A stretch of DNA of 64,000 nucleotides from Candidatus Thiodiazotropha sp. (GTDB lineage: Bacteria > Pseudomonadota > Gammaproteobacteria > Chromatiales > Chromatiaceae): assembly GCA_040506775.1 (NCBI GenBank), contig JBEVWC010000027.1:159801-223800 (forward strand), in the 5' to 3' direction. A model generated the notes under the pieces. That model did no database searches. It worked only from the letters and a program-made list of their open reading frames with translations, and was not told the origin of the DNA. This document shows positions 33,448 through 34,200 of this stretch, in pieces; the first letter of the stretch is position 1; each line of letters begins with the position of its first letter. The position numbers and the translations under genes are program-made.

Positions 33448-34200
33448 CTAGTGTGGATCTGCACCCCCAACCAACTTTGCCACCTTAAGCAAAAAATCCG
33501 CTTGACCGATCCCGATACCCTTTTCAGTTCCACGGCGGATCTCCGACAGCACCTTACGCGATACCGTCTGCTCGAATAACGCGAGATAAGGTGTTGTATC
33601 TCCGGGGTCGGAGTCGAATCGAGAACGGAGTGGTTGGCTTGATGAATGCACTTGGCTATTTTCGAGATGATTCGCGGCCTGAGCACTCTCGACTCCGACC
33701 CCTCCAGCAATCAAGTCCAAATAATTTCTATGAGGAGTCACCAGACCATCGGGTTTCCCCAATGCATTAGCATGAAAACTGGAATAAGGATAATCCTCCG
33801 GCCGTCGTGCGATACCGGCACGTACCGGATTCAATTCGATATAGCGGTAGCAGGCCAGAAGATAGCGGTCGGTGTCCACCAGGCCCGATTTATAGCGTCC
33901 CTCCCACAAGGAACCGCTGCGGTGGTAACTGCGATTGAAATACTGGGCATAGCGCCTGCCCACTGACTGCATGGCCCGGGGCAAGGAGTGCTCTTCCTTG
34001 GGTGTCACAAGAAGGTGGATATGGTTATGCATCAACACCCAAGCATGCACCGCCAGCGAGTTGTGCTCGGCCGCTTCCCGCAGACATCGATAGAGAAAGC
34101 GAAAATCTTCGTGGCGAGCAAGAATCGGATCACGGTTGTGCCCGCACACCACCACATGCTGTGGCTGATCCGGCAGGAATATGCGGGGTTTTCTTGGCAT
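33448..34200 (-). CDS. REP-associated tyrosine transposase (RAYT, Y1 HUH family)
   Basis: AAGGAGG RBS before ATG 34200; HUH motif MHNHIHLL, LWEGRYKS and catalytic YIELNPVRAG, DYPYSS. Confidence 0.92.
   Translation of the reverse strand: MPRKPRIFLPDQPQHVVVCGHNRDPILARHEDFRFLYRCLREAAEHNSLAVHAWVLMHNHIHLLVTPKEEHSLPRAMQSVGRRYAQYFNRSYHRSGSLWEGRYKSGLVDTDRYLLACYRYIELNPVRAGIARRPEDYPYSSFHANALGKPDGLVTPHRNYLDLIAGGVGVESAQAANHLENSQVHSSSQPLRSRFDSDPGDTTPYLALFEQTVSRKVLSEIRRGTEKGIGIGQADFLLKVAKLVGGADPH
33604..33702. repeat. 99-bp TIR-bounded palindromic element, type B, copy 2, inside the RAYT reading frame
   Basis: Near-identical to 33335-33433; read in frame as GVGVESAQAANHLENSQVHSSSQPLRSRFDSDP. Confidence 0.93.

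Follow-up and report, generated by a model that had tools for sequence, protein, structure and literature searches.

What is a palindrome doing inside the reading frame of the transposase gene that such palindromes flank? The question is raised by a 64,000-nucleotide (nt) stretch of DNA from Candidatus Thiodiazotropha sp., here called the window, which carries a gene for a tyrosine transposase of the type associated with repetitive extragenic palindromes (REPs), a RAYT, and, within that gene, an in-frame palindrome of 99 nt. RAYTs are domesticated transposases that act on single-strand DNA. We propose, with a probability of roughly 60%, that the internal element is a long-resident copy of the cognate palindrome of this RAYT, and that its arms have been maintained as a recognition site.

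The RAYT gene occupies positions 33448-34200 on the minus strand, with its ATG at 34200, and encodes 250 amino acids (aa). The open reading frame (ORF) matches Pfam PF01797 Y1_Tnp (E 9.7e-15, 55.2 bits against a cutoff of 23) and the NCBIfam model for REP-associated tyrosine transposases, NF047646 REP_Tyr_transpos (89.8 bits, cutoff 80). A profile of the family matches E. coli TnpAREP (PDB 4ER8, the protein bound to a REP hairpin) across residues 5-145. The same structure was the top match in a Foldseek search with an AlphaFold (AF2) model (4er8_A, E 4e-8, target-normalised TM-score 0.70), whose core has a predicted local distance difference test score (pLDDT) above 90. The HUH motif is H60-I-H62 and the Y-x3-NP motif is Y120-IEL-N124-P125; both sets of columns are invariant or nearly so in a 41-sequence family alignment, and the protein fits the Y-x3-N-P signature that defines class 2 TnpAY1 (PMC6006769). 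The 4.47-Mb genome contains one full RAYT gene and one N-terminal fragment. This low gene copy number and the cognate palindromes on either side of the gene, at 34222-34339 and 33327-33444, give the locus the layout of a REPtron.

The internal palindrome (33604-33702) was first noticed in a reading of the sequence alone, and each of its features has held up: the element is 33 codons long, in frame and stop-free. Its 14-nt arms, GGGGTCGGAGTCGA at 33604-33617 and TCGACTCCGACCCC at 33689-33702, are perfectly complementary and 71 nt apart. Inside the 14-bp stem is a further 5-bp stem, and the centre of ~50 nt is weakly paired. The folding energy of the element is -22.7 kcal/mol as DNA (z -2.8) and -41.9 kcal/mol as RNA (z -2.5). 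The element lies in the linker (33589-33711, minus strand, codons 164-204) between the catalytic core and a C-terminal helical domain (33451-33588, minus strand, residues 205-250), which has predicted helices at residues 203-210, 215-226 and 234-245 and matched no Pfam family even at E<=10. The 41-residue spacer between YLDL and YLALF, which the sequence-only reading placed past all of the catalytic motifs, is indeed residues 164-204, downstream of HUH and Y-x3-NP, and the insert accounts for residues 167-199, ~45 residues past the Y motif. AlphaFold assigns residues 168-195 a pLDDT below 50, and the encoded peptide is predicted to form a disordered loop, consistent with the earlier suggestion that it is tolerated as such. 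The insert thus resembles a Rickettsia palindromic element in being an in-frame, stop-free and disordered segment with conserved protein downstream, the peptide being a predicted translation. An open frame through one such element is unremarkable, as 25% of shuffled 99-mers have no stop in any one frame that is chosen, and three of the six frames of the palindrome are open. The significance of the insert therefore rests on its recurrence across the family, and we dropped single-event open-frame statistics as an argument.

The internal palindrome is part of a 118-nt repeat unit (33596-33713). The rest of the unit is a foot of 8 nt at 33596-33603, which reads GGAGATAC on the gene strand, and an 11-nt flank of RAYT coding sequence at 33703-33713, which reads TGATTGCTGGA on that strand. 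The near-identical copy that had been seen beyond the stop codon is a second copy of this unit (33327-33444), 151 nt from the first and identical to it at 117 of 118 positions, with A at 33405 versus G at 33674 as the sole mismatch. The upstream palindrome, in the 5' untranslated region (UTR) at 34222-34339, represents a second subfamily, with arms at 34231-34243 and 34315-34327. It is a diverged copy (69% over 118 nt), with the same arms and a different centre, and is orthologous to the palindrome upstream of a related RAYT on the Logan contig L107. Across the window, the arm core occurs 10 times, compared to 0.18 expected. The foot sequence GGAGAT, or ATCTCC on the opposite strand, is common to all copies. 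A search of Rfam gave nothing relevant (one chance match at 15 bits), and a plasmid database gave only weak matches to unrelated transposase genes.

Comparison with the closest relatives bears on the age of the insert. The RAYTs of L107 (84% aa identity) and L186 (83%; a Ca. Thiodiazotropha metagenome-assembled genome, also recovered as Logan contig L187) have the internal copy at an identical position, in the same frame and with the same flanks as the window, and the internal copy was confirmed independently in three other assemblies. The after-stop copy is absent from both L107 and L186, where homology to the window stops after the stop codon and GGGGT. An insert-free homologue, L112, reads ATTGCTGATGG at the position of the 11-nt flank, which identifies TGATTGCTGGA as native RAYT coding sequence. 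Since the after-stop copy carries these 11 nt of RAYT coding flank, it is derived from the internal copy. At the single base that differs between the two copies, the internal copy and L107 share G (in a GCG codon), which suggests that the internal state is ancestral; L186 is too diverged there for comparison. Taken together, these comparisons indicate that the internal copy is not fresh and is instead an old trait of the family, either retained or recurrent. No insert-lacking allele was found at the species level: the genomes of the same genus hold only RAYTs of <=52% identity, with no orthologue, and the insert is present in every one of the closest relatives (83-84%).

These results bear on the earlier proposal of self-insertion, one part of which stands: the insert is a copy of the palindrome that flanks its own RAYT gene. 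A recent origin does not, given that L107 and L186 share the insert. The 117/118 identity of the two copies and the 151 nt between them would fit a fresh insertion of the after-stop copy into the RAYT gene in this genome. However, two genomes share the internal site and its flanks without the after-stop copy, the after-stop copy contains RAYT coding flank, and the internal copy agrees with L107 at the lone differing base, which makes this scenario very improbable. Likewise, the insert had been put forward as direct evidence that the element is mobile, a claim that is not supported, as the RAYT coding flank in the after-stop copy shows copying to have run from the internal position to the external one, opposite to the self-insertion first proposed. 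The 118-nt after-stop duplicate could in principle be an assembly artefact, the assembly being a draft in 51 contigs. This is more improbable still, as one base and the flanks on either side distinguish the two copies, the duplicate lies exactly at the junction where homology to L107 and L186 ends and a repeat of the guaA end starts, and the internal copy is present in the three other assemblies.

The linker is variable throughout the family. A search of 5.8 billion proteins recovered 120 homologues at 54-84% identity, and our census comprises 121 sequences. The linker, measured from YLxL to Y..LF, ranges from 4 to 55 residues with a baseline of 7, typically V/I-A-D-G-L-D/E-A. Short linkers of <=10 residues are present in 26 of the 121, and more distant homologues (~42% identity) have a conserved 10-residue segment, G....ERQAA, at the same site. 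The alignment sizes the linker at 41 residues in the window versus 4-10 in insert-free homologues, which disposes of the concern that those without the palindrome might have an equally long segment. The 10 residues of the distant homologues agree with the figure of about 10 given in the sequence-only reading. Insert-free homologues begin at ~68% identity (P0016, locus L195); at L195, flanking palindromes are present and the linker is empty and even shortened.

The long linkers have a recurrent peptide composition. Both arm peptides, GSES, VSES or GVGVE together with DSDP, DSDT or TPTP, were recognised in 59 of the 121 sequences and one arm in a further 17, for 76 with one or both. The arm GGGTCGGAGTC is translated as GSES/VSES, GVGVE or GRSR in different homologues and its complement as DSDP/DSDT, TPTP and others, so that across the family the palindrome stem is read in all three frames. 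This implies that a nucleic-acid stem, rather than a peptide, is what the family has in common. Selection on the loop at the peptide level was considered and judged unlikely, as one DNA stem translates in three frames. Hairpins with the same stem are found in the linker of about two thirds of the 121 homologues. At the DNA level, we checked 15 loci, 14 of which have long linkers, and in all 14 the core GTCGGAGTC was part of a perfect stem, 8-18 bp in length. At the seven loci where the core was mapped, the stem starts between nt +499 and +508 of the ORF. The same stems also flank the RAYT genes at the DNA-checked loci, and L192 has one and the same hairpin on both flanks and inside the gene. 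The smallest hairpins are about 30 nt and the largest 100 nt or more. For annotation, the insert accounts for the spread of protein lengths in the family (209-272 aa) and for the odd "GSES...DSDP/TPTP" peptides of the linker. In eight of the 120 hits the C-terminal part is missing or there is a frameshift at or after the linker, and the L186 RAYT, the one of these read as DNA, is instead frameshifted near codon 50.

One interpretation of this pattern is that the internal palindromes are neutral passengers at an insertion hotspot, where palindromes insert repeatedly and independently near the transposase gene and those that hit the permissive linker survive; intact arms would then reflect recent arrival rather than maintenance. 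Consistent with this, palindromes cluster around RAYT genes, and the internal copies vary among lineages in length, frame and centre, with that of L028 resembling the dispersed family of its own genome and that of L192 its flanking hairpins. On the best trees, which were built without the linker columns, the short or long state of the linker changes 11-13 times. However, well-supported branches force only 2-5 of these changes, and we do not regard repeated independent insertion as established. In the outgroup-rooted tree, the 112-member ingroup child reconstructs as having a long linker, with 11 changes of which only two are forced. The interpretation also fits poorly with the clear orthology of the window, L107 and L186 copies, which are old (core dS 0.54) and whose arms are essentially unchanged, and no conserved target-site motif is evident at the insertion point or at the dispersed copies. 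We consider this explanation unlikely.

Whether the arms are maintained can be judged from the substitutions they have accumulated. Between the window and L107, the ratio of nonsynonymous to synonymous substitution rates (dN/dS) is 0.12 in the core (dS 0.54), 0.42 in the linker and 0.33 in the C-terminal domain. These values indicate that the reading frame through the insert is still used, and the C-terminal domain downstream of it remains under purifying selection. Among the window, L107 and L186, only 1 of 28 arm sites is variable, compared to 16 of 51 in the centre of the element (p=0.004), 61 of 162 third codon positions in the core (p=1.3e-4) and 109 of 487 core sites overall (p=0.016). 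In this small sample of three sequences, the arms are thus more conserved than coding constraint would explain.

Such conservation might also be expected if the in-gene hairpin were a selected cis-regulatory or self-recognition device. In one version, an mRNA hairpin of ~-42 kcal/mol would throttle or split expression between core-only and full-length protein; in another, RAYT would bind or nick its own coding DNA, resulting in negative feedback. The hairpin is stable, it is kept at one fixed site across a clade of at least 120 RAYTs and in all three frames, its arms are more conserved than the third codon positions of the core, and both halves of a complementary, compensatory double change (TCA...TCT) in the stem of L190 are synonymous. 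On the other hand, a 7-residue linker without a hairpin suffices in at least 26 of the 121 homologues, whole and well-supported clades among them, although flanking palindromes are present there. The arms have decayed in many linkers, and a hairpin that ranges from ~30 to 100 nt or more would be odd for a tuned regulator. We therefore hold this explanation possible but doubtful. The broadest form of the idea, that the linker hairpin is a working part in several RAYT clades, either as a site in its own gene that RAYT recognises and perhaps nicks and rejoins or as an mRNA hairpin that gates the synthesis of a C-terminal DNA-binding domain, is one that we offer tentatively. If true, the RAYT gene would be self-regulating and would also hold a protected master copy that seeds and corrects the palindromes of the genome, and several RAYT clades would share this as a general feature, which would then be more than a quirk of subclass 2.4, the group of tnpAREP genes considered at the end.

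In the reading that we prefer, a long-resident palindrome with maintained arms, the internal copy would be the third palindrome of the REPtron, beside the 5'-UTR and after-stop copies. The linker that houses it, unstructured and naturally 7 residues long, would be the one place in the gene where it is tolerated. The peptide would be a by-product of the palindrome, and the DNA stem would be the conserved entity. The arms would stay intact as a working recognition site for RAYT, a single-strand-DNA cut-and-rejoin enzyme whose action on them would hold the REPtron copies to a common sequence and permit occasional copying. We infer that the arms are kept by enzyme-driven copying or correction of this kind rather than by selection on gene regulation. 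IS200/IS605 enzymes and TnpAREP cleave at sites offset from the hairpin, so that a copied unit would include bases outside it. In the latest event of this kind in the window genome, the internal element, together with 11 nt of gene flank on its 5' side and the 8-nt foot, was copied to the after-stop position, where a degraded island inserted at guaA has its edge.

Several points weigh against this reading. The binding and cutting of the palindrome by RAYT are argued by analogy to E. coli TnpAREP and IS200/IS605. The conservation of the arms is based on three sequences, and either gene conversion involving other copies or selection for an mRNA hairpin could also produce it. Decay of the arms does happen, as 36 of 95 long linkers have one or no recognisable arm, and the existence of whole, well-supported short-linker clades that lack the hairpin speaks against a strong functional claim. 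Frameshifted copies are under-represented in databases of predicted proteins. From the trees, recurrent insertion and a single old insertion followed by many losses are both possible. The enzyme itself may be impaired by an R19C substitution, as codon 19 (34144-34146) encodes Cys in the window and Arg in 118 of 119 homologues; this is the sole column of >=90% conservation at which the window RAYT deviates. The window genome gives no sign of current genome-wide mobility, with five palindrome copies in 4.47 Mb, every one beside RAYT DNA at RAYT loci, rather than the tens to hundreds of dispersed copies of a REPIN population. Furthermore, the canonical REP foot GT[AG]G was not found, with no GTAG or GTGG adjoining any of the five copies.

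Mobility of the palindrome is better shown by dispersed copies in a relative than by the window. In G041, the genome of L028, the arm core occurs 83 times, compared to 15 for a control, and paired arm cores suggest ~30 dispersed hairpins on four contigs. Most of the 19 copies that were sequenced have the same 18-bp arms (GGGGTCGGAGTCAAACCG) as the internal RAYT copy of L028, and a second subfamily has GGGGTCGGAGTCAAATTTGA. These copies amount to a weak case of a dispersed, REPIN-like population. To judge from such sequences, the internal copy in each genome belongs to that genome's own low-copy dispersed family.

Within the window, a truncated second REPtron (4487-4896) lies 29 kb from RAYT and consists of a RAYT 5' fragment and two tandem palindromes, both within 4676-4896. 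Positions 4487-4781 correspond at 92% to the RAYT 5' UTR with the upstream palindrome and to the ORF as far as nt 165, the second tandem palindrome is at 4790-4896, and the ORF diverges beyond ~55 codons. A match to the Sigma-70 promoter consensus marks a putative promoter at 34335-34363 (minus strand), just outside the upstream palindrome. On the other side of the gene, the after-stop copy abuts the distal repeat of the guaA end (33296-33324), in which the last 10 codons of guaA are repeated as an att-like scar (26 of 29 nt identical to 41348-41376). The two guaA repeats bracket an island of ~8 kb without an integrase, which contains a lipase_3 gene, a 1021-aa orphan, a 176-aa ORF and, at its far edge, RAYT. 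In both L107 (1777-5696) and L186 (3765-6585), RAYT is directly upstream of the conjugative-transfer genes DUF1525 and TraU, with TraG_N also present in L107. This suggests that RAYT was carried on an integrative conjugative element that has since degraded in the window genome.

Three side observations concern the repeats in and around RAYT genes. Recombination between the direct 118-nt copies in the window would delete a 151-nt segment encoding the C-terminal domain, and the product predicted from the sequence (33302-33445, minus strand) is a core-only RAYT ending ...DSDPGDTEQAAGDD. In L114 (1310-1430), the region upstream of a RAYT without an insert has a short hairpin (GGGGTCGGAGTCACGACTCCGACCC) and, after it, the half-arm TTTACTCCGACCC as a 13-nt unit repeated eight times in tandem. 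In Halothiobacillus (L095:3400-4140), two RAYT copies are in tandem, the first of which ends early, near residue 147, through a duplicated and unrelated repeat encoding MGSDSIDF.

To our knowledge, the function of RAYTs is still not known, and nearly all work has been devoted to the E. coli and Pseudomonas types. The internal copy described here provides a natural, testable candidate for the recognition site of the enzyme. Among known systems, the locus can be compared to REPIN-RAYT pairs (Bertels and Rainey 2011, PMC3116915; Nunvar 2010, PMC2817692), with which it shares a single-copy Y1 HUH gene flanked by palindromes, a fold match to E. coli TnpAREP with its REP (PDB 4ER8) and, in some hosts, a dispersed palindrome family. 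Classical REPINs, unlike this locus, lie outside genes in tens to hundreds of copies and are paired along their whole length; here, there are five copies with a weakly paired centre, one of which is inside the RAYT ORF. The papers searched on REPIN-RAYT biology do not mention an in-gene palindrome of this kind. IS200/IS605 insertion sequences (ISs) likewise depend on a Y1 HUH enzyme, have a subterminal hairpin at each end and undergo single-strand cleavage offset from the hairpin foot, but they are multi-copy autonomous ISs with no hairpin within tnpA. Rickettsia palindromic elements, and the intragenic REPs reported in other genes (PMC3733652), are in-frame palindromes translated as surface loops of otherwise intact proteins. 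However, their host genes are unrelated, and the elements have no connection to the enzyme by which they are moved, whereas here the host gene encodes the presumed enzyme itself and the site is fixed across the clade.

TIRYT genes, described by Di Nocera et al. 2013 (BMC Genomics 14:522, PMC3733652), are flanked by terminal inverted repeats (TIRs) with the consensus GGGGWSAS. These TIRtron genes, roughly subclass 2.1, also encode longer RAYT-like proteins with a C-terminal extension and have flanking inverted repeats, some of which are self-complementary and form low-copy dispersed families. The arm in the window, GGGGTCGG, agrees with the consensus at 7 of 8 positions. In its C-terminal extension and arms, the window clade thus seems to resemble the TIRYT/2.1 type, although internal in-frame copies were not reported for TIRYT genes and no REP-like sequences were reported near subclass 2.1 genes (PMC6006769). 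Subclass 2.1 has a C-terminal domain resembling a helix-turn-helix (Bac_DnaA_C, HTH_23 or HTH_28); the C-terminus here has three predicted helices and no Pfam match.

The closest precedent for the palindrome itself is subclass 2.4 of the tnpAREP genes, inside which Quentin, Siguier, Chandler and Fichant 2018 (BMC Genomics 19:475, PMC6006769) described in-frame REPs, a feature that they called 'unique' to this subclass. In both cases, a RAYT gene flanked by cognate palindromes contains further copies that leave the frame unbroken, in a region whose length is hypervariable and which modelling places in a peripheral loop. The insertion sites differ, as the insert here (residues 167-199) is past the Y motif and occupies the linker that leads to a C-terminal helical domain. 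Further differences are that the palindrome here lacks a GTAG foot and that its clade belongs to the Gammaproteobacteria. An in-gene palindrome of this kind is therefore already published, and what is new is its presence in another clade and at another fixed site. With this locus, the in-frame palindrome extends beyond subclass 2.4 to a gammaproteobacterial clade in which roughly two thirds of ~120 relatives carry one.

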